The notes: a model not told the origin generated them from the sequence alone. Positions 1 through 13,849 are shown, counted from the stretch's first letter. The stretch is DNA of 52,852 nt from Candidatus Nanoarchaeia archaeon (GCA_038851215.1 JAWCLD010000001.1:1-52852); one strand, 5' to 3'. Made by a program: numbers and translations.

Positions 1-2245
1 TTGTTAGTGTTGTTGCCGTCTTATCAGCACATATACCCCTATAACCAGAGTTTATACCAACACCGTCAACAATATGTCCCTGTCCGTCAAATATGACATC
101 ACTTGAAGTAATGTTAATGCAGCACTCTGCGTGACTATTTAAAATATCCTGAGTTAGTGCATAATAGCCTGGTGTTGTAATATTTATGCAATTTGCTACA
201 TTAACAGAACCGACAAAGCCAAGAGGTGTAAATATACTGCCAAAATTAGTTATGTTTGCATAGACATAATTTGCTTCTGTGTTGACGCCGTAAGTTCCGT
301 CTGTAAATTCGTTAGGATCTGTAAACCACCCACTATTATTATGCTTAGCTATATTTAACTTGTTTTCATCAAGTTCTCCAAGCTCGTCTTCGTTATAGCT
401 TACATTTAGATAAAGCCATGAGCTTTCAGAATTATTTGTGGCTGTATTGTTTGTTAGAATGTTGTTGGAGCTGGAATAAAAGTAAATACCCTTGCTATCA
501 CTAGAATTAATGACGTTACCAGTAAATGTGTTATACCAACCATCGCCAAGTTCGATTCCGTTGCCTATACTTTTTGCAATAGTATTATTAGTAATGTTTG
601 TGTAATTCACATCCCATAATTCCATACCTTCCCAGTCGCTATAGTTGACATAATTATTCTCTATATTACTATAAACCAAAGAATCAAGTACTATTGCACT
701 ACCCCAACCATTTTTCTTAAGGTGTATAAAATTATTAGTAACATTTATGTAAATACCGTCGTCAACACAAATTCCCCAATTGGCTGAAAGCAAAGTATTG
801 TTTGCAATCGTTATATTAGTATTACCATTATAGCCGAAATCTATAGCATATCCAGCACCAGATATATTGTTATTTATTACAATGCTATTGTTCGCTTGAT
901 ATGCACCAATGCCTCGATCGTCGTTGTTAATGAGCGTGTTGTTTATTATCGTAAGATTAACAGAAAATCCATCTGTCTCTAAACCATTGCCATTATTGTT
1001 AATGATATTGTCTGTCAGGTTGTTGTTGGAGCTAGAATTAAGATAGATGCCATCATAAAAATTAGAAGAAACAAAATTATGGCTAATCAAACTGTTATTA
1101 ACGTTTTCCAACACTATACCAGCCTCGCCATTCGAGCTTGCAGTGTTATTATAGACTGTAACATTATTACTTTGTATAATTTTCAAGCCCGTTTTTAAGC
1201 CATAAGGCACGGAATTAAATATGTTGCTCGATATTGTACAATTTGTAATTTCAAGAAATACCGCATTATAATTACTATTACTACTTATATTATTGTTAAT
1301 AAAGTCCAAATTTGTGTATCTAGCATAAGTGCCATTCAGATTACTGTATATGTGATTGTCCGATATAGTTCCATTGACTATGCCTGAGGAAGAATCAGCA
1401 TAAAGGCCTAAATCATTATTCCATATCCTATTTGAGCTTATACTATATGTCGACAGACCAATAAGATCGTTACCAAGAACTAAGCCATAAGTATTGCTTG
1501 AAAGATTGCAATTCTGCAAAGTGGCTGTTTTAACGCCAAAGCCTACTCCTGTTCCCCAGTCTGTAACTACACAATTTTTTACAGTTACGTTTACTACTGC
1601 TCCGCCACCTTCATGCACGACATTAATGCCATAACTGCCAGTGTCATCGCCATCAATCGTATGATTTTGGCAATCCAACACAACATTTGAAGCATTAATT
1701 TTCATACAAGTATCTTGATTACTGTTAGAAATGTCTGCGGTCAAATAATAAGTTCCTGCAGCACTAAGGTCAGAACAAGTACTTATGTCTGCTTGTAGCT
1801 CAAAACTTGGCTGTTCTTCTACTGCTGGCTCTGTTTTGGTAATTTTACCATAATAAATTTCATAAGTGATGCTTTGCTGTTGTTGGGTTTCTGTCTGTAT
1901 TTCAAAAGTGGGTTCAATTTGTTTGTAAATTACATTATCAAAGATCACATCGGTTTCTGTACAAAGATTATCTGAATCGTAAATCTCATTTGTAGTTTCA
2001 AATAAAATAGCTTGGCCGTTTGCTTCTATGTAAATGCCTTCCTTGCAACTCGCCGGCTTATATCGACCAAATACAATGTGTTGTATAATTTTTTCTTGCG
2101 ATGAATTTGCAGCTATTGTAATGTGGTTTTCCCACTCTTGGCCATCGGCGGAGTAGCCTGCAAGACCAGTAAAGCTTGGTTTATACGTAAAGACCAATAA
2201 TACAAGACTAAAAATTATCACAAGGGCTGTAAACAATACTATCAT
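1..2245 (-). CDS. Partial (C-terminus runs off the window) membrane-anchored surface protein with right-handed parallel beta-helix (PbH1/NosD-like) repeats
   Basis: Absent from the ORF track because no stop lies inside the window. Reading the reverse complement from ATG 2245..2243 gives MIVLFTALVIIFSLVLLVFTYKPSF (hydrophobic anchor). Asn/Ile/Gly-rich ~22-residue repeats follow (ISSNSNYNAVFLEITNCTISSN, ITIANNTL, INVTNNFI). A second module head (TTPGYYALTQDILNS..CINITSSDVIFDGQGHIVDG) echoes the first (SAAGTYYLTADISNS..CMKINASNVVLDCQNHTIDG). The frame appears open to position 1 (hand translation). Confidence 0.7.
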   Translation of the reverse strand, partial: MIVLFTALVIIFSLVLLVFTYKPSFTGLAGYSADGQEWENHITIAANSSQEKIIQHIVFGRYKPASCKEGIYIEANGQAILFETTNEIYDSDNLCTETDVIFDNVIYKQIEPTFEIQTETQQQQSITYEIYYGKITKTEPAVEEQPSFELQADISTCSDLSAAGTYYLTADISNSNQDTCMKINASNVVLDCQNHTIDGDDTGSYGINVVHEGGGAVVNVTVKNCVVTDWGTGVGFGVKTATLQNCNLSSNTYGLVLGNDLIGLSTYSISSNRIWNNDLGLYADSSSGIVNGTISDNHIYSNLNGTYARYTNLDFINNNISSNSNYNAVFLEITNCTISSNIFNSVPYGLKTGLKIIQSNNVTVYNNTASSNGEAGIVLENVNNSLISHNFVSSNFYDGIYLNSSSNNNLTDNIINNNGNGLETDGFSVNLTIINNTLINNDDRGIGAYQANNSIVINNNISGAGYAIDFGYNGNTNITIANNTLLSANWGICVDDGIYINVTNNFIHLKKNGWGSAIVLDSLVYSNIENNYVNYSDWEGMELWDVNYTNITNNTIAKSIGNGIELGDGWYNTFTGNVINSSDSKGIYFYSSSNNILTNNTATNNSESSWLYLNVSYNEDELGELDENKLNIAKHNNSGWFTDPNEFTDGTYGVNTEANYVYANITNFGSIFTPLGFVGSVNVANCINITTPGYYALTQDILNSHAECCINITSSDVIFDGQGHIVDGVGINSGYRGICADKTATTLT

Positions 2246-2280
2246 CGTTTTAACGCCTTTGCTAAATATTTGCTTTTGTT

Positions 2281-2490
2281 CTACCTTTTTACTGCGAGCC
2301 ATAAGTTAACCCCTGCTTTTTTCATTCTTTGAACTTTACCTTCTAGCGTAAGTTCTAACATAAGCTTTTCAGCAGTGTTCCAACTAATTTTTAAGGCGGA
2401 GGCAACCTCTGTTGTTGTAAGAATTGGCGATTTTTTTAAAAGCTCAAGCACACTACGCTTGTTCGCACTTAATTCGTTATGATTATCCAT
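2281..2490 (-). CDS. Small winged-helix DNA-binding protein (putative transcription regulator)
   Basis: 69 aa; SVLELLKKSPILTTTEVASALKISWNTAEKLMLELTLEGKV looks like an HTH plus wing. A TATA-like CTTTATATAG lies about 40 nt upstream. It sits 35 nt upstream of the beta-helix gene on the same strand. Confidence 0.55.
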   Translation of the reverse strand: MDNHNELSANKRSVLELLKKSPILTTTEVASALKISWNTAEKLMLELTLEGKVQRMKKAGVNLWLAVKR

Positions 2491-2541
2491 AGCAAAGGCC
2501 AGTATGTTATTGTTATGAAATATAGAATGACTATATAAAGC

Positions 2542-2712
2542 TTACTTTTTGCCTTTCTTTTCTAAATCTGCGGTATCTATTTCTTGCACCACATAACCTA
2601 TGTAACCACACTTGTCACAAACCCATTGCTCAGGAAGGAGCCAACCTGCAGCAGGGTTGCTTAAATATATATTAGGATTCTTGCACCTTGGGCAAATCGG
2701 AATTTTAACCAT
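2542..2712 (-). CDS. 56-aa zinc-ribbon mini-protein (CPRC...CDKC)
   Basis: Hand translation gives MVKIPICPRCKNPNIYLSNPAAGWLLPEQWVCDKCGYIGYVVQEIDTADLEKKGKK*. It is below the track size cutoff. Its ATG overlaps the taw1 stop by 8 nt, which suggests coupling. Confidence 0.45.
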   Translation of the reverse strand: MVKIPICPRCKNPNIYLSNPAAGWLLPEQWVCDKCGYIGYVVQEIDTADLEKKGKK

Positions 2713-3658
2713 TTAATTGCATATCTTTAGAAAAGATGATAACTCTACTTACAGTATCTTTATACCTTACAACATAGCCAGTAAGCTTGCTGATTTTTCT
2801 TGCAAAGCTTTCGAGATCTCGCATCGTAGGCATATTATCCTGCTTCAACCTTTGCCTAGATTCTCCAAGCCAAGTGTAGCCCTTAAATTCGACGAACTTT
2901 GGCTTTGCTAGCTTTATCAATTTGGCCCAACCTTTAGCGTCTTTCAAATTAAGGCCTTTTACTAAAGTCATTCTGAAAATTGTGCGTGCCTCTTTAAAAT
3001 CCTGCATCATCTTAAGCGATTCTACAACCTTTTTCCAGGCGTCTTTAATAAAAGGTCTTGCGATTTTTTGATAGTCTTTTGAATTTGTTGCATAAACAGA
3101 AATGTAAAGGTTTGTTGGTTCTGCTTTTTTTATTAACAACTCTTTTAGTCTATGTGGCATAGTTCCGTTTGTTACAAGAAAAGCTGTCATGCCTCTTCTC
3201 TTTATTTCCTTGATAAGCTCTGCGAGCTTTGGATAAAGGGTTGGTTCTCCATCGAGAGAAATTGCAACATGTTTTGGCTCTAGGGCTTCTTTGTACCTCT
3301 CAATTGTTGTTTTAGGATTACCCTTCCAACCGCTTAAAAGTTCGCGTTGTGCTTTTATCGCAGCATCTAAAATCTCTTTCGGCGAATCCCATTTGCCTGT
3401 TGATTTAAATCTCTCCTTACCAAAAGTTCTCCAGCAGAATTGGCAATTAAAAGTGCAAAAATCTAATGTGGGCGTCATTTGTAAACATCTATGTGAAGAA
3501 ACACCATAAAAGCCTTTGTAGCAATTTCTTTCTCCTCTTAAGACAGATTTTGTCCAGCGACAAATCTCAACACCGCTGTGCTTGTTTTTACCTATAACCC
3601 GATAGCCTGCTTTCTTATATCGCGCGAGTTGCTCTGGCGTAAACTTAGTGGGATTCAT
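2705..3658 (-). CDS. taw1: 4-demethylwyosine synthase Taw1/TYW1 (radical SAM)
   Basis: 317 aa. Carries a radical-SAM CxxxCxxC (CTFNCQFC) plus the upstream Cys cluster (EICRW..CYK..HRC) typical of TYW1, and a Wyosine_form-like C-terminus. Confidence 0.85.
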   Translation of the reverse strand: MNPTKFTPEQLARYKKAGYRVIGKNKHSGVEICRWTKSVLRGERNCYKGFYGVSSHRCLQMTPTLDFCTFNCQFCWRTFGKERFKSTGKWDSPKEILDAAIKAQRELLSGWKGNPKTTIERYKEALEPKHVAISLDGEPTLYPKLAELIKEIKRRGMTAFLVTNGTMPHRLKELLIKKAEPTNLYISVYATNSKDYQKIARPFIKDAWKKVVESLKMMQDFKEARTIFRMTLVKGLNLKDAKGWAKLIKLAKPKFVEFKGYTWLGESRQRLKQDNMPTMRDLESFARKISKLTGYVVRYKDTVSRVIIFSKDMQLNG

Positions 3659-3688
3659 ACTAGAAATGATGAGTGACGATTTAAAGAG

Positions 3689-4723
3689 CTAACGCTTTTG
3701 AAGCACCAAAAATTTCCTCGTTAAACCGCCGTGCACATACAAGGAAGACTCGAAAATAGTTTTCCAAATCCTATTGTTGACAAACTTTTTTGCTTTAATG
3801 TAGTGTGGATAAATTAATGATAGGAAATGCTTCGGCTTTAGCACTTTATTAGCAGTAGCAAAGAAACCTCTGTAAAGTGCGTTAATGCTTCTAGCGCCAA
3901 CTTTTGTTGATTTGCCATAGGGCGGATCTGTAGCAATTGCATCTATAGAATTTGGCTTAAATAACTTTTCTAATTCGAGCGCATTACCTTCTTGCACCTT
4001 TGCTCGAAGCTTATAGAATTTCAAATTCGTTTTCGAGCCTTTTACCATTTCTGCGTCTATGTCGGTGCCTATAGGTTTGCAGCCCAAGATTGCAGCTTCT
4101 ATCAGGACGCTGCCAGTACCGCAAAAAGGATCCAACAAAGTTTGATTTTTTTTCGCTCTTGAAAGATTTACCAAAAGCCTGGCAAGCTTTGGCTTTAAGG
4201 ACGTTGGATGAAAGGCTGGCTTCTTTATTGGCTCTCGCTGCACAAATCGGCCTTTGCTAGCGCGCCATAGCAACTTTGCTACATATACCTTACCATCCGT
4301 TATAACAAAAAGAACTGTTGTTTTTGGATTTTCTAAAGAGACTAAAGCGGATGGCGTTTTGCCTCTTTCGTGAATTAGGTGATGGTAAATCGGACCTGCA
4401 AGCCTTGCCTCCAGCCTTGGCGCGGCAAGGTTTGTTAGGTCTATAACTCGAACGCAAAAAGGCGCCTTAACAAATGACCAATTAACTTTGTCGAGCTCTA
4501 CTAGCATTAAAGATTTTAGCTCTTTAATCACAAGGCTGGCTAAATGCAAAAATGCACTTCTTTCAGAGATCTTTTTAACGAAATCTTCAGATACGTTTGC
4601 CTTTACGAGAAGAAAATTATTGAAGCGCTTTTTTATGATAAATTTGCGTGGATAAAAAAGTGCTTCCAGCTCTTGCTGGGCTAAATCTAGACTTTCGCCA
4701 GATAGCTGAAAGAGATAGTGCAT
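3689..4723 (-). CDS. trm11: THUMP-domain tRNA (guanine-N2)-methyltransferase, Trm11/TrmG10-like
   Basis: 344 aa; an N-terminal THUMP-like region is followed by SAM motif I LLDPFCGTGSVLIEA and the catalytic DPPYG. Confidence 0.75.
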   Translation of the reverse strand: MHYLFQLSGESLDLAQQELEALFYPRKFIIKKRFNNFLLVKANVSEDFVKKISERSAFLHLASLVIKELKSLMLVELDKVNWSFVKAPFCVRVIDLTNLAAPRLEARLAGPIYHHLIHERGKTPSALVSLENPKTTVLFVITDGKVYVAKLLWRASKGRFVQREPIKKPAFHPTSLKPKLARLLVNLSRAKKNQTLLDPFCGTGSVLIEAAILGCKPIGTDIDAEMVKGSKTNLKFYKLRAKVQEGNALELEKLFKPNSIDAIATDPPYGKSTKVGARSINALYRGFFATANKVLKPKHFLSLIYPHYIKAKKFVNNRIWKTIFESSLYVHGGLTRKFLVLQKR

Positions 4724-5005: not shown

Positions 5006-5425
5006 TTATAGCTCTTCATCTATATCTGTTGTTTCTGTACTTTGAGCTGCTGACTTTGGCGTGCCTGTGCCTGCTCTCCAAACCCTAGCGAAGCTTGGCG
5101 TTACCACTAAGAAATTCTCGCCGAAACCTGCAATGTCGCCTTCGTTTGCCTCAACAGTTTTCTTTATTTTATCAATAGCTCTTTTTAATTCAGCAAGATC
5201 TTTATCCTTCAACGGTTCTATATTGATTATTGAAATAGTATAACCTTCTCTAACGCATTGCAAAATATCTTTAATATCATCAAATTTTTCTAAAGTAAAA
5301 GGTCTAACGACAACCTTAGACGCCTGTTCTTTTATATCGGCTTCGAGCTCAACATAATCTTCGCCAAGTTCAACATCAGATTCCTTAGTAGTAAAAACTT
5401 TTTTCAGATTGTCAAGTATTGCCAT
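5006..5425 (-). CDS. sepF: Cell division protein SepF (archaeal FtsZ anchor)
   Basis: Matches the SepF/DUF552 pattern: VVVRPFTLEKFDDIKDILQCVREGYTISIINIEPL..LKRAIDKIKKTV..GDIAGFGENFLVVTP. I prefer the start at MAILDNL (5425) over the track start at 5461. Confidence 0.7.
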   Translation of the reverse strand: MAILDNLKKVFTTKESDVELGEDYVELEADIKEQASKVVVRPFTLEKFDDIKDILQCVREGYTISIINIEPLKDKDLAELKRAIDKIKKTVEANEGDIAGFGENFLVVTPSFARVWRAGTGTPKSAAQSTETTDIDEEL

Positions 5426-5540: not shown

Positions 5541-7148
5541 TCAGCTCGCAGAAAAACTGATTTCCAATCCTTTTAATAAGGCGTCTTCAATTAAACTGCC
5601 AAGCTTCGACTTCTTATGAATTTTTATTTCCCCACTACGAGGCACTGATAATTTTGTAACAGATTGTCCCGCAATTTCAAGATTTACAAAGCGGACAGGT
5701 CTTGTTAAGTAAAAGCTAATATACTTTTTAGCCTCCTTTACTTTGTATGGGATTGTGCCAATTGCGAGAATTTCTTGTTTTCTTTTTGTTTTTATTGGCA
5801 CTATAACAGTCTGCTCACCGTAAGTATAGATCTCAAACTCAAGTTCTTTTGTCTCTAGATCTCGTACTTCTACTACTGGTCGGGCAAGATCCGCTTCTGT
5901 CATTCCTGTTGGTACTTTAACTTTCATTGTTAGCTCTAAAACTTTGGCAACTTTACCATCTTCAATAAATATTATTGTGTCGATAATAGATGGCATCATT
6001 CCGAGCTCAATGCGACCAACAAATCTCTGTATAGCATCGATTGGGTTTGTGCCGTGTACAACTCCAACAAGACCAATTCCGGCAAGACGTAGATCGGCAT
6101 AAAGCTTGAAATCCTCGGTTACACGCATTTCGTCAAAGAAAGTATAATCTGGTCTTGTCAACAACATTACATTGTGAATGTCATCTCTATTGCCAAGATT
6201 TTTTGAATACTGAACGACTTCATCAGGGACTTGCAAATCTCGCGGACTTTCGATTGTCTTTACAATTTTGCCAAGCTTCAGATAGAATTTCGCCAAGGCA
6301 GAGGCAAAAGTTGTCTTGCCTGAGCCTGGCGCACCTGAAATTAAGATTCCTGCAGTGTTTCTGCTAAGTCTCTCTCGTAGTGCTGTTGGCAACTTGTAAT
6401 CTTCTATTTCTAGAACTGCAATAGGTCGTACTGCAGTAAGCTCCCAGCCATCAGAGAAAGGCGGTTTAGTTATAACAATTCTGAAGTTTTTAAACTGTAT
6501 AATTGTCACAGCCGGAGTATTCAGTTCGATGAAGGCGTTCTCTGCCAACTTCGTTTTTTCAATTATATCTGAAGAAAGCAATCTTATATCATGGCCAGAT
6601 AACGCTTCTTTTTGTAAGTTAACGAAGGACCAAGCACCCGGTCTACCTTTCTTTGCAATCGGAATTGTATTTTCCTTTAAATGAATCGACATTGTTTCAG
6701 CATCAAAGAATTTTTCTATATCGAGTTTGCCAACTTCCCTTATTGGCAGGGGTGTAAGTAGCATTACAGAGATGCCAAGCGCTTCTGCAACTAGAGCTTG
6801 TACTCTGTCTGCTGTTATCAACGTACCTTCTCTTTGTACTGCTATATCCCTTATAATATCATCAATTGCGCCTGCTTTTGCACCTTTTATGTAAGCCTCA
6901 ACAGGTTTAGCGCCTGCGAATTGAATAGAAATTTTTTTTGTTTCTGCAGCAATTGCCCGTAGTTCTTTTATTTCTTCTAAGCCAAGAAAACCTTCAGTTT
7001 GGTTTGTGTTTGCTTGGTGTTCCAGCTCTGCAAGGACTGCGTTAGGTATGATTATCTCACCTGAAATTTTATCTTTCTTAACCAAGTCGGATACTTGCCG
7101 TTCAATAAGAACGGAAGTATCTACGACATATACTTTTTTGTCTTTCAT
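5541..7148 (-). CDS. PIN-domain / PilT-like ATPase / KH-domain protein (COG1855-type)
   Basis: 535 aa with an N-terminal PIN (VVDTSVLI..), Walker A GAPGSGKTT, and a C-terminal KH-like region. Confidence 0.7.
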   Translation of the reverse strand: MKDKKVYVVDTSVLIERQVSDLVKKDKISGEIIIPNAVLAELEHQANTNQTEGFLGLEEIKELRAIAAETKKISIQFAGAKPVEAYIKGAKAGAIDDIIRDIAVQREGTLITADRVQALVAEALGISVMLLTPLPIREVGKLDIEKFFDAETMSIHLKENTIPIAKKGRPGAWSFVNLQKEALSGHDIRLLSSDIIEKTKLAENAFIELNTPAVTIIQFKNFRIVITKPPFSDGWELTAVRPIAVLEIEDYKLPTALRERLSRNTAGILISGAPGSGKTTFASALAKFYLKLGKIVKTIESPRDLQVPDEVVQYSKNLGNRDDIHNVMLLTRPDYTFFDEMRVTEDFKLYADLRLAGIGLVGVVHGTNPIDAIQRFVGRIELGMMPSIIDTIIFIEDGKVAKVLELTMKVKVPTGMTEADLARPVVEVRDLETKELEFEIYTYGEQTVIVPIKTKRKQEILAIGTIPYKVKEAKKYISFYLTRPVRFVNLEIAGQSVTKLSVPRSGEIKIHKKSKLGSLIEDALLKGLEISFSAS

Positions 7149-8954: not shown

Positions 8955-9818
8955 TTAGCCGATATATGGCATCTCTTGTTCTTTATTTTTTTTCATCTCG
9001 CTAGCTTCTTTTGCTTTTTCTATGAATGCTTTTAGTCGCTCTTCGAATTCGCCAGCTCTTTTTAACAGTAATTTGTAATCGACTTTTAAGCCAAGGTATT
9101 TGTCGAGAACTTCAATTATCTTTGCAGCTGCTTTGTAATCTGGCAAATTACTATGCGTCTCAGCAAAAATTGCAGAGGCATTAATGTCTTTGTCCGCCTT
9201 GAGCATCAGAGCTGCTGACGGACCAAAAATAACACCTTCTCTTATTGTGCTTAAGCCTATAGCCTTATATTTTTTGCTTAAAGTTTCCTGGTTTGTATAA
9301 TAGTATGCTTCTGACATCTTCTTCTCGATAGGCCCGCCAATCCCTTCTATTGAAATTATCTCTTTTGCATCGATTTTTTTGTACAACTTAAGAAGTGCGT
9401 CAGCAACTTCCCACTCCATTCCTCCAATACCAGTAACCGCTTCCAACACAACTAAGTTGTACTTGTCATTATGTAAAATTTCCAGTGGCTGAACTAGTCG
9501 GTTGTTATGCACAAATACTAGCGGAGGAAGTTTGGGAGACCACAACGAACCAATTGAATGCATCTTTAAATGATCCATCAAAAATTCCACTGCAATTGTC
9601 GCGACGAAGCCGAAGCCAGGAAAGCCTTCTATTATAATAGCATTCTTGCGTGGCTTAATTTTAAGCTTTAGTTGCAGTTTTTTGTAACCATTTGCTACGT
9701 GCTTAATTACAGAATTTAAGTCGCGATCCCCTAAATTTGAATTTGTCGGTCTTATTTTGATTGTAGGCGACATTCTTTTTTCAGTTTTGCTAAGATCTGG
9801 GAGTAATGGTGTGGCCAT
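8955..9818 (-). CDS. PAC2-family proteasome assembly chaperone-like protein
   Basis: 287 aa; IIEGFPGFGFVATIAVEFLMDHL and the overall architecture resemble archaeal PAC2/COG1938 proteins. The start may be the internal MSPTIKI. Confidence 0.6.
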   Translation of the reverse strand: MATPLLPDLSKTEKRMSPTIKIRPTNSNLGDRDLNSVIKHVANGYKKLQLKLKIKPRKNAIIIEGFPGFGFVATIAVEFLMDHLKMHSIGSLWSPKLPPLVFVHNNRLVQPLEILHNDKYNLVVLEAVTGIGGMEWEVADALLKLYKKIDAKEIISIEGIGGPIEKKMSEAYYYTNQETLSKKYKAIGLSTIREGVIFGPSAALMLKADKDINASAIFAETHSNLPDYKAAAKIIEVLDKYLGLKVDYKLLLKRAGEFEERLKAFIEKAKEASEMKKNKEQEMPYIG

Positions 9819-9875: not shown

Positions 9876-9894
9876 CAAAGCTTAAAAATTAAAA
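9876..9894 (+). promoter_or_regulatory. Putative BRE/TATA element for the 5S rRNA gene
   Basis: CAAAGCTTAAAAATTAAAA is centred about 25 nt upstream of the inferred 5S 5' end. Confidence 0.35.
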
Positions 9895-9907: not shown

Positions 9908-10072
9908 CCGCCAGCGGTCAAAGTACCGGGGCAAAACCCGTACCCATTCCGAACACGGAAGTTAACACGTTGAAATAGGAGTTTTGTCTATTTCGGCGCG
10001 GCTGAAATCCCGGTAACGTTTTGCCTTGTACTGGCCGGTAATCGGCCGGGAAGTGCAAAAAACTGCTGGCGT
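9908..10072 (+). rRNA. rrf: 5S rRNA, about 165 nt, with an extra ~42-nt segment
   Basis: Contains the conserved core CCCGTACCCATTCCGAACACGGAAGTTAAC and loop E/helix IV TTGTACTGGCCGGTAATCGGCCGGGAAG. Terminal helix I pairs CGCCAGCGG (9909..9917) with CTGCTGGCG (10063..10071). An oligo-T tract follows. The gene is not linked to 16S/23S in this window. Confidence 0.8.
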
Positions 10073-10105
10073 CTCATTTTTATAGTTCAAACTTATTTGA
10101 TTTGC

Positions 10106-10429
10106 ATGCAAAATAAGAATGAATGGCAAGCCATTGCAAAAGAAAGAATAGATATTTTGTTTAGGGAAGCAAATTTAGCAGCCAAAGAAGGGAACTTGCA
10201 AAGGGCTTCACGATATATTTTTTTAGCCAGGAAATTGGCAATGAAATATAATTTGCGATTATCAAGGGAACAAAGAAAGAAATTTTGCCACAAATGTTAC
10301 AAATACCTCATGCCTGGAAAAAACGTTTCCATTAAAATTAATCCTAAGTTACAATCGGTTGAATATCGGTGTAAGGAATGTGGGCATACTAATAGATACC
10401 CTTATATCAAGGAAAAGAAATTAAAGTAA
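10106..10429 (+). CDS. rnp4: RNase P protein component 4 (Rpp21/Rpr2)
   Basis: Has an N-terminal helical region (IAKERIDILFREANLAAKEG..ASRYIFLARKLAMKYNLRL) and a Zn ribbon (CHKC...CKEC). Confidence 0.8.
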   Translation: MQNKNEWQAIAKERIDILFREANLAAKEGNLQRASRYIFLARKLAMKYNLRLSREQRKKFCHKCYKYLMPGKNVSIKINPKLQSVEYRCKECGHTNRYPYIKEKKLK

Positions 10430-12101: not shown

Positions 12102-13849
12102 CTATCTTTTGGCTTCAATCTCTTTCTGTAAATCTTTAATGAAATCGTTAATCTTGATGCCGAATTTCACTTTTCCGCCTCTTGGCCGAACCGCAATCGT
12201 GTCAGATTTTTCTTCTTTATCTCCGGCTACAAGAATGTAAGGAACTTTTTCGATTTCTGCCTGTCTTACTTTATACTCTACAGTATTGCTGCTATAATCC
12301 GTCTCAACACGCAAACCGGCATTCCGGAGCTGCTTCTCAACCTTTTGTGCATAATTTAAGTTTCTGTCTGCAAATGTTAGCAATTTGACTTGCACTGGAG
12401 CAAGCCATGTTGGGAAAGCTCCACCATAGTTTTCTATTAAAATGCCAGTAAAGCGCTCGATCGCACCAAGTAAAGTACGATGTATCATAACAACCCTATG
12501 TAATTTATTATCTGCTCCTATATAATTCAAATCAAATTTTTCAGGAAGATTAAAGTCGAGTTGTATTGTTAAGCATTGCCATTTTCGGTTTAATGCGTCA
12601 AGTCCATGAACGTCTATTTTTGGGCCATAAAATGCTGCTTCGCCCGGCATTTTAGTATATTTTATTTTCTTTTTATCTAAAACTGATGTTAGCGCCGTTT
12701 CGGCTCTTTTCCATATTTCCTCAGAACCAAGATACTTTTCTTTCTCCGGGCCTCGCAAAGATAGCTCGATTATATAATTTTTAAAGCCAAATTGCTCTAG
12801 CATCCAGAGTCCGAATTCTAATACAGATTTTATTTCACCTTCAAGCTGATCAAGTGAGCAAAAAATGTGCGCATCATCTTGCGTTATGCTTCGCACTCGC
12901 ACTAAGCCGTGAAGCGCACCGCCAAACTCCGGTCTGTAAACTGTTGCAAGTTCACAATATCTAATTGGAAGCTCTCTGTAACTTCGTGGTTTAAACTTGT
13001 AAATTTGGATGTGAAAAGGGCAACTCATTGGTTTAAGCAAGTAATCTATTTCATCGACTTTCATTGGAGGATACATATTTGCTTTATAAAACACCCAATG
13101 CCCAGACGTTTTCCATAAGTCAATTTTACCAATATGTGGCGTAAACACATATTGGTAGCCGCGCTTGTCATGTTCTGTTTTCCAAAAGTCTTCTATTACT
13201 CTTCTTATGATAGCTCCCTTGGATGCCAAAGTGGTAATCCGGGCCCAACGGTTTCTGAGTAAATATTAAACAAATCTAGTTGCTGGCCAAGTTTAATGTG
13301 ATCTCTTTTTTCTGCTTCTTCTCGCCTCTTCAAAAAGGCGTCTAATTCTTTTTGTGTTGGGAAGCTAATTCCATATATGCGTTGGAGCACTGGTCTTTTT
13401 GGATTGCCACGCCAATAAGCTGCTGCAGTGTTTAGAAGCTTAAAAGCACCGATTTGACCAGTTGATTTTATTAAGGGACCGGCGCACAAATCTATAAATT
13501 TGCCATGTTGGTAAAAAGATATTTCTTTATCCGGAATCTCTTCCAAAAGTTCAAGTTTATACCTTTCATTTTTAAGTATCTTTTCGGCTTCTTTTCTTGG
13601 CAGCTTGAGATGTTTAAAAGCTAAGTCTGCTTTAATTATTTTAGCCATTTCTTTTTCTATTTTTGCTAAATCCTCTGCAGTAAAAGGGTCGCGCTTATCG
13701 AAATCATAGTAAAAGCCTTCGTCTATAGCTGGTCCTATGCCTAATTTTACATCAGGCCAGAGACGCTTAACAGCATCCGCTAATATGTGGGATGTTGAGT
13801 GCCAGAATGCCTTTTTATCCTTCTCCGTTACAAAGGGAGTCTTTACCAT
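12102..13849 (-). pseudogene. thrS: Threonyl-tRNA synthetase interrupted by a 1-nt frameshift (two ORFs, 13205..13849 and 12102..13229)
   Basis: The upstream ORF has the SAD/editing HxxxH (WHSTSHILADAV), DLCAGP and RDHIKLGQQLDLF, and ends ..GPGLPLWHPRELS*. The downstream ORF continues (M)ASKGAIIRRVIEDFW.. through the class II catalytic core and anticodon-binding domain. Adding one A at CCAAGGG (13216..13222 on the plus strand) would give the contiguous ..PLWHPKGAIIRR... Confidence 0.8.

Follow-up and report, generated by a model that had tools for sequence, protein, structure and literature searches.

Of the DPANN (Woesearchaeota-like) MAG examined here (G000; 468 kb, 34 contigs, estimated to be 93.8% complete), the sole 5S rRNA candidate is a locus at positions 9909-10071 of a 52,852-nt stretch of DNA, termed the window, and it carries about 42 nt more than the 5S rRNAs of its relatives. 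The assignment of the genome comes from neighbouring proteins and named homologues, which indicate a DPANN archaeon of the Nanoarchaeia/Woesearchaeota kind. The question raised by this locus is whether the additional nucleotides are kept in the mature rRNA or are removed from a precursor. A preliminary description had proposed a retained expansion, with a spliced element as its alternative. The gene, the site and the hairpin on which it relied were all recovered in the present analysis, the evidence from which favours the alternative: the 42-nt insert is likely to be a small protein-free bulge-helix-bulge (BHB) mini-intron in the single 5S gene of the cell, not a permanent expansion.

The interrupted 5S rRNA gene and its setting

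On direct reading, five helices and the conserved motifs of loops A, C and E follow one another in canonical order (Table 1), and every element listed in the preliminary description was found again at the same positions. The gene had been put at about 165 nt, close to the 163 nt obtained here, and its surplus of about 42 nt had been placed between helix III and the 3' strand of helix II. Alignment with 15 normal 5S genes from relatives confirmed this placement, the exons matching those genes column for column and the insert lying between GGAAGUU and AA(U/G)CC. The 42 extra bases can be written as standing between ...GGAAGUUA and AUCCCGG..., at the junction of loop B and helix II, or equally between GGAAGUUAA and UCCCGG. 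Because of the A runs at its edges, the boundaries 9964-10005, 9965-10006 and 9966-10007 are equivalent descriptions of 42 nt, an ambiguity of up to 2 nt. In the numbering of our own alignment, anchored on the conserved AA bulge of helix III (E. coli A52, A53), the site corresponds to E. coli ~57/58.

The 7-bp hairpin noted earlier, formed by GAAAUAG (9973-9979) and CUAUUUC (9989-9995), is present and lengthens in MFE folds to 12 bp plus the pair C9966-G10000. The mismatch position within this helix is an A-U pair in the homologous inserts of two related genomes, G004 and G008, and one of its G-C pairs becomes G-U in G008. A BLAST search of the insert against its own genome revealed it nowhere else; nine nucleotides shared with tRNA-Phe, around the anticodon loop, were dismissed as a chance match. 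A C/D-box sRNA was likewise rejected: although CUGA occurs at the 3' end, a C box is missing from the window copy, and an element of 42 nt would be too small.

At the gathering threshold, the only Rfam match in the window is a tRNA-Thr, and no 5S is reported. In E-value mode, RF00001 gives 27.1 bits against a cut-off of 38, with a forced and wrong alignment of 9910-10007 (98 nt), and no normal-length 5S with other boundaries emerged from this search; uninterrupted 5S genes of relatives reach 57-80 bits. The score lies below the cut-off because bridging the insert is beyond the model. Searches of the genomes of all three carriers of the insert, G000, G004 and G008, yielded no further 5S.

The gene had also been called an orphan, and the 16S-23S operon of the genome does lie on a separate contig (C5) and is devoid of a 5S. 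In the order, a 5S standing alone beside a PAC2 gene is the rule; this synteny is kept in relatives, in which PAC2 served as the anchor for locating the 5S genes, and the Rpr2/Rpp21 gene neighbours the 5S there too. The A/T-rich stretch upstream is matched at equal distance in G004, G008, G016 and a further locus, L105 (CCUUUUAAA / CCUUUAUAA), and a T6 run takes the corresponding place downstream in G004, G008 and G016. The roles of promoter and terminator assigned to 9882..9894 and 10077..10081 are putative. Elsewhere in the window, the threonyl-tRNA synthetase gene (12102-13849, minus strand) is read as two overlapping ORFs of 214 aa and 375 aa, possibly through a frameshift or sequencing error. 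On C5 (C5:4000-11000, locus L114), RNase P RNA (106 bits; 868-1121, minus strand) lies directly downstream of the 23S gene (1186-4084, minus strand) on the same strand, and a tRNA (4270-4341, plus strand) is located on the opposite strand in the 16S-23S spacer.

Table 1. Features of the interrupted 5S rRNA gene, its neighbours and the predicted BHB motif, with the 16S mini-introns of the same genome (window positions unless L114 is named; ^ marks a predicted cut)
Feature	Position	Strand	Details
Interrupted 5S rRNA gene	9909..10071	+	163 nt as encoded; 121 nt after predicted splicing
Helix I	CGCCAGCGG 9909-9917 / CUGCUGGCG 10063-10071	+	9 bp, one G-U; direct reading
Helix II	UACCGGG 9924-9930 / CCCGGUA 10009-10015	+	7 perfect bp; direct reading
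Loop C/helix III	9943-9966	+	CCCAUUCCGAACACGGAAGUUAAC; direct reading
Loop E/helix IV		+	GUACUGGCCG-GUAAU-CGGCCGGGAAG; direct reading
Helix V		+	UUUUGC/GCAAAA; direct reading
Predicted exon 1	9909..9964	+	helix I 5' strand, helix II 5' strand, helix III/loop C, ...GGAAGUUA; end at 9963 or 9965 equally possible
Predicted 42-nt BHB mini-intron	9965..10006	+	A + hairpin 9966-10000 + GCUG + AA
Predicted exon 2	10007..10071	+	AU, helix II 3' strand, helix V, loop E, helix IV, helix I 3' strand
Predicted intron helix h'	9966..10000	+	C9966-G10000, A9967.C9999 mismatch, 12 bp 9968-9979/9987-9998; loop AGUUUUG
Predicted 5' BHB half	9959..9965	+	central strand A9959 A G U9962, bulge U9963 A9964 ^ A9965; predicted cut after 9964
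Predicted 3' BHB half	10001..10007	+	central strand G10001 C U G10004, bulge A10005 A10006 ^ A10007; predicted cut after 10006
TATA-box-like A/T-rich stretch	9882..9894	+	UUAAAAAUUAAAA; ~15-27 nt upstream of the 5S; putative own promoter
T5 run	10077..10081	+	6 nt past the 5S 3' end; putative archaeal terminator
PAC2-family proteasome assembly chaperone gene	8955..9818	-	divergent neighbour; Pfam PF09754, E 8e-36
RNase P protein subunit Rpr2/Rpp21 gene	10097..10429	+	downstream neighbour; Pfam PF04032, E 7e-17
Predicted 16S mini-intron, 47 nt	L114 ~5656-5702	-	loop GGUGGU-GUAAUG[..]G-ACCACC; bulges UG^U and AA^G
Predicted 16S mini-intron, 45 nt	L114 ~5124-5168	-	790 loop, GGGAUUAGAU[..]ACCCCUGUAG; bulges AU^A and AU^A

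A candidate BHB motif in the restoring frame

EndA cuts between the second and third nucleotide of each 3-nt BHB bulge. Three excision frames restore the GUUAA(U/G)CC of the relatives, and under this rule only one of them forms a BHB, the two others giving 1/4 and 0/4 central pairs. In the frame so defined, the central helix consists of A9959.G10004, A9960-U10003, G9961-C10002 and U9962-G10001, that is, 3/4 standard pairs (one of them G-U) and an A.G, and exactly four positions separate the bulge UAA from the bulge AAA. On the intron side, helix h' supplies 7/8 pairs next to the motif and 13 bp overall with one mismatch. On the exonic side, helix h is limited in the window to G9958-U10008 and G9957-C10009 (2/3), and in G004 and G008 to essentially one pair; helix II may serve as the exonic helix across the three-way junction with helix III. 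The search for a BHB motif suggested by the preliminary description has yielded a motif of BHB type with splice points that restore the 5S, but it is relaxed, as only three central pairs are standard and the exonic helix is weak. The register is shared by G004 and G008, in which the bulge is adjoined by five uninterrupted pairs (CACGC/GCGUG or GUGUG), and GGCUGAAA at the 3' half is invariant in the three insert copies. When the central helix is added to the native fold, the computed energy falls from -56.1 to -59.2 kcal/mol.

The predicted product reads ...ACGGAAGUUA+AUCCCGGUAA. Spliced in silico, the 5S is 121 nt long with the junction GGAAGUUA^AUCCCGGUAACG, and it aligns without gaps to the 5S rRNAs of relatives, which have the same length and junction; the corresponding product of G004 has exactly the sequence seen at the empty sites of G016 and L105. 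Another register (AGUU/GGCU, 4/4, with bulges AA^C and GA^A) is structurally as good and was ranked second, because its product contains two extra A's and differs from every relative.

It should be noted that loose BHB-like motifs are abundant in the genome, with 24,631 matches (3.1e-4 per site pair, about one per 40 nt). As such patterns are common by chance, the motif taken alone is weak evidence and was not used as a significance test. Its weight comes from its coincidence with the sole restoring frame and from its context; the chance of that coincidence, given the hairpin, may be put at 1 in 20 to 1 in 50, a rough estimate rather than a computed value. Only two independent insert lineages are available, and for this reason the central helix offers no real covariation test.

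Under the intron reading, the gene would be transcribed from its own promoter into a 5S precursor of ~163 nt, in which the insert would fold as a 13-bp hairpin (9966-10000) inside an otherwise native 5S fold. The 3' tail GCUG (10001-10004) would pair with AAGU (9959-9962) at the base of helix III, leaving two 3-nt bulges, U-A-A (9963-9965) and A-A-A (10005-10007), four positions apart. Subsequently, EndA would cleave after 9964 and after 10006, between the second and third bulge nucleotides, and RtcB would ligate the exons into a 121-nt 5S reading ...GGAAGUUA-AUCCCGG..., as in relatives. We infer transcription, cleavage and ligation of this precursor from the sequence.

The same genome provides a setting in which such processing can be judged. 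Its 16S gene (L114 4387-5945, minus strand) measures 1559 nt against a model of 1478 nt and contains two inserts (Table 1), both with a canonical BHB of 4/4 central pairs and 3-nt bulges. Cutting between the second and third bulge nucleotides gives GUAAUGG and GGGAUUAGAUACCCCUGUAG, which fit the Rfam consensus; the second junction can be written as GGGAUUAGAU^ACCCC. When the rule is applied to tRNA introns at the canonical position, the anticodon stem directly adjoins the motif. According to ARAGORN, which found a total of only 24 tRNA genes on contigs C4, C5, C6, C7, C9, C10 and C13, introns of 13-57 nt interrupt 12/24 of them, some at non-canonical positions outside 37/38, and several of the called introns likewise show 3/4 central pairs. 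Further tRNAs with non-canonical introns were probably missed. In tRNA-Phe (C7:2560-2667), the intron seemingly lies 5' of the anticodon loop (CACCC^...^CUGAAAUGGGUG).

As for the enzymes, EndA is encoded by a single gene on contig C30 (L075 1117-1788; PF01974, 96.3 bits, 223 aa), a second (beta) subunit being undetected by PF01974, and RtcB is present (PF01139, 563.8 bits). The EndA protein has an N-terminal extension of ~45 residues rich in Lys and Glu. Single-gene EndAs with an extra loop have been described by Kaneta et al. in DPANN lineages rich in disrupted tRNA genes (PMC5829648). Compared with the non-canonical tRNA introns with relaxed BHB motifs of DPANN and TACK archaea (PMC5829648), the 5S insert would involve the same enzymes and cut geometry, and relaxed motifs are tolerated there as well; it differs in that the exonic side of its motif lies at the three-way junction of helices II and III and not in an anticodon or other tRNA stem.

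Cleavage need not imply religation. The insert might be excised or nicked by EndA or another RNase and the 5S left in two pieces of ~56 and 65 nt, an outcome that we regard as very unlikely. Only the cleavage part of the BHB argument is needed for it, and helices I and II would hold the halves together; against this, RtcB is encoded, must join many tRNA exons and has the products of EndA as its normal substrates. No data point specifically to a two-piece 5S, which would, to our knowledge, be without precedent in archaea. In bacteria, fragmented rRNAs left by the removal of intervening sequences are known (cited in PMC7812874).

Presence and absence of the insert among relatives

A covariance model comprising helices II and III and the insert was searched against 17 family, 39 order and 401 class genomes, among which the insert was found only in G000, G004 and G008. 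The 5S genes on G004:C1 and G008:C14 (33-34 bits with RF00001) hold a homologous 43-nt insert at the identical site; the comparison with related genomes, also proposed earlier, has in this way revealed both the 42 nt extra relative to normal 5S genes and two homologues. Between the window and these two, 34/43 insert columns are identical (79%), compared with 72% for the 5S cores. AACACG, GAAAUA, UCUAUUUC and GGCUGAAA are invariant across the three copies, and the differences between the two diverged lineages are confined to the loop and mid-stem. Genome contigs and metagenome contigs were also scanned with the exact pattern GAAGTTAACN{26,46}TATTTCN{4,8}RRCTGAAA; the matches, 5 + 5 loci in the two contig collections, are attributed to chance because none fits the covariance model.

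Ordinary 5S genes of 115-117 nt are present in 32/41 of the relatives' genomes surveyed, and in the nearest relatives of both carrier lineages the empty site reads exactly GUUAA(U/G)CC. Five contigs whose PAC2 is 63-68% identical to that of the window carry an insert-free 5S, ...GAAGUUA-AUCCUGG..., almost identical to the window exons. In a further insert-free contig, PAC2 is 85% identical to that of G004 and the 5S core equals that of G004 at nearly every position. G016 is empty at the syntenic site and shares its terminator and downstream gene with G004 and G008. Look-ups of PAC2 neighbours on 10 contigs returned insert-free 5S genes only and no new insert copy.

On the RpoB tree (Rpb2_6 domain), the carriers are not monophyletic: G000 groups with genera g3, g4, g8 and g10, G004 groups with g7, and G008 is sister to the insert-free G016. 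The G008:C14 locus (L033, L036) is far closer to G004:C1 (L032, L035) than this tree allows, with a closely similar downstream gene and a nearly identical promoter region, and this contig is either mis-binned or the result of lateral transfer. In the sequences compared, the insert is present or absent among near relatives with a junction that is always precisely canonical, and the 5S cores follow species clades. The occurrence of a 79%-identical insert in non-sister lineages, the nearest relatives of which have clean empty sites, raises the possibility, offered here tentatively, of a mobile lineage of protein-free BHB mini-introns that moved between Woesearchaeota-like 5S genes and always entered the same site; alternatively, many precise losses may have taken place.

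Several minor features of these loci were observed. Upstream of the 5S promoter, G004 and G008 share a conserved element of ~55 nt (L032 ~199-253, with its counterpart in L033), in which a U run comes after AAGCCAGAUCUCACACCUCCAACUCGGGCUCGCGCAAGCGGGCCC; it resembles a hairpin terminator or the 3' terminus of a small RNA. Several 5S genes of the family (L032 ~326-345, L103, L102, L105) have GAUC in loop C (CCCGUUUCGAUC) and not the nearly universal GAAC, a variant that occurs both with and without the insert. Between the 5S and Rpp21 genes of G004 (L035 2067-2847), the translated sequences include a nucleotidyltransferase-like and HEPN-like gene pair, which looks like a module of the toxin-antitoxin type.

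It could be argued that the window locus is a decaying 5S pseudogene, or a product of assembly or binning, and that a working 5S lies in the unassembled ~6% of the genome. The MAG is indeed fragmented into 34 contigs and incomplete, and one of the carrier contigs, G008:C14, disagrees with the position that RpoB gives to its bin. An assembly artefact is nevertheless countered by the homologous insert at the identical site in two further assemblies, three independent assemblies in all, and decay by core helices that are all intact, with compensatory changes in helix V between G004 and G008 and in helices II and III between the window and relatives. The synteny with PAC2 and Rpp21 is also kept, as are the signals resembling a promoter and a terminator, and none of the three carrier genomes contains a second 5S. 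Such an origin is considered the least probable of those weighed here, and highly improbable in itself.

Retention, excision and comparable insertions

An alternative of more weight is that the 42 nt are kept in the mature 5S as a third arm at loop B, on the central protuberance, consisting of the 13-bp hairpin and a 7-9-nt linker. We hold this to be unlikely. Cells whose sole 5S is an expanded one are known (Halococcus and its relatives, some Firmicutes; PMC7812874), but the site ~57/58 is described as blocked by uL5 in bacteria, and inserts at sites occluded by uL5 or uL18 are judged unlikely to be functional or to assemble into ribosomes (PMC7812874). The insert folds on its own without disturbing the pairing of the core. 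An RNA of such a shape would face an EndA that already copes with relaxed motifs. It is at least as conserved as the core in two lineages, as a retained arm might be, but retention leaves the invariant 3' tail GGCUGAAA unexplained and must contend with near relatives that lack the insert, with exactly canonical junctions and with a non-monophyletic pattern. Finally, the BHB is imperfect and such motifs easily arise by chance, whereas the same genome removes 16S inserts of similar size, of which that in the 790 loop could not plausibly be retained.

The intron reading is favoured because the splice points restore the sequence of the relatives exactly, because two canonical BHB mini-introns occur in the 16S of the same genome, in which tRNA introns are abundant and both EndA and RtcB are encoded, because the distribution is patchy with precise empty sites in close relatives, and because in bacterial ribosomes uL5 is reported to occlude the site (PMC7812874). 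Counted on the same side are AACACG and GGCUGAAA at the junctions, which are unchanged between two diverged insert lineages.

Stepanov and Fox (2021) catalogued 89 expanded prokaryotic 5S rRNAs of 15 structural types, in which the only archaeal expansion site is 104.1-105, in Halobacteria, and suggested, absent experiments, that inserts might be excised like introns (PMC7812874). The comparison with Halococcus made in the preliminary description is apt solely in that both are insertions in a 5S. The 108-nt insert of Halococcus morrhuae and other 5S expansions share with the present one a sole oversized 5S, a self-folding insert and patchy inheritance; those tested experimentally are retained, the archaeal ones at the exposed site 104.1-105, whereas the window insert lies at ~57/58, a site regarded as occluded, and has boundaries that fit a splicing motif (PMC7812874). 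Comparable, too, are the small protein-free BHB introns in the 16S and 23S rRNA genes of Thermoproteales and other Crenarchaeota (Jay and Inskeep 2015; PMC4496867). Like the present insert, these are short hairpin inserts in conserved rRNA regions, with two bulges around a short helix, predicted excision by EndA followed by ligation, and a patchy occurrence among close relatives; in contrast to them, the present host is a 5S, the lineage is DPANN and the BHB is relaxed (3/4 central pairs, weak exonic helix). The phrase "5S rRNA intron(s)" and its variants returned nothing from the searchable literature, and papers on BHB processing of archaeal rRNA name the 5S only for end maturation. If the insert is, as is probable, a BHB intron, both its host gene and its site are new.

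If it is spliced, the archaeal tRNA-splicing machinery would also mature 5S rRNA in DPANN, and the 5S would join tRNA, 16S and 23S as an archaeal intron host, whether the intron was gained by movement or kept after losses. The patchy and precise presence and absence would then offer a compact system for the gain and loss of protein-free BHB introns. It would also follow that standard 5S models miss such interrupted genes and, with the sole 5S gene here below the Rfam cut-off, that annotation and completeness estimates of such genomes are biased. Retention would instead make the insert the first 5S expansion in archaea other than Halobacteria, at a supposedly occluded site, and would imply a remodelled central protuberance.

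Oversized 5S genes also occur elsewhere in the class. In a survey of the 401 class genomes with RF00001, 373 have a normal 5S and about ten more have an oversized one of 136-179 nt (loci L118 and L120-L128, from G137, G422, G118, G195, G281, G425, G199, G440, G224 and G407). Their inserts, of 36-62 nt, are located in the helix III AA bulge, loop C or helix IV, none of them at the junction of loop B and helix II; they are unrelated in sequence, and none matches the covariance model of the window insert. The 5S genes of G195, G422, G137 and G118 resemble that of the window as DPANN 5S genes interrupted by 36-62 nt and differ from it in site and sequence. The G422 gene seems to hold two inserts. 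In G195 (L122 99-253), the 36-nt insert in the helix III AA bulge presents a perfect BHB, CUCG.GA^A.UGGAC...GUCCA.CGAG.AU^A, and cutting it by the same rule restores CUCGGAAGUUAAAC.
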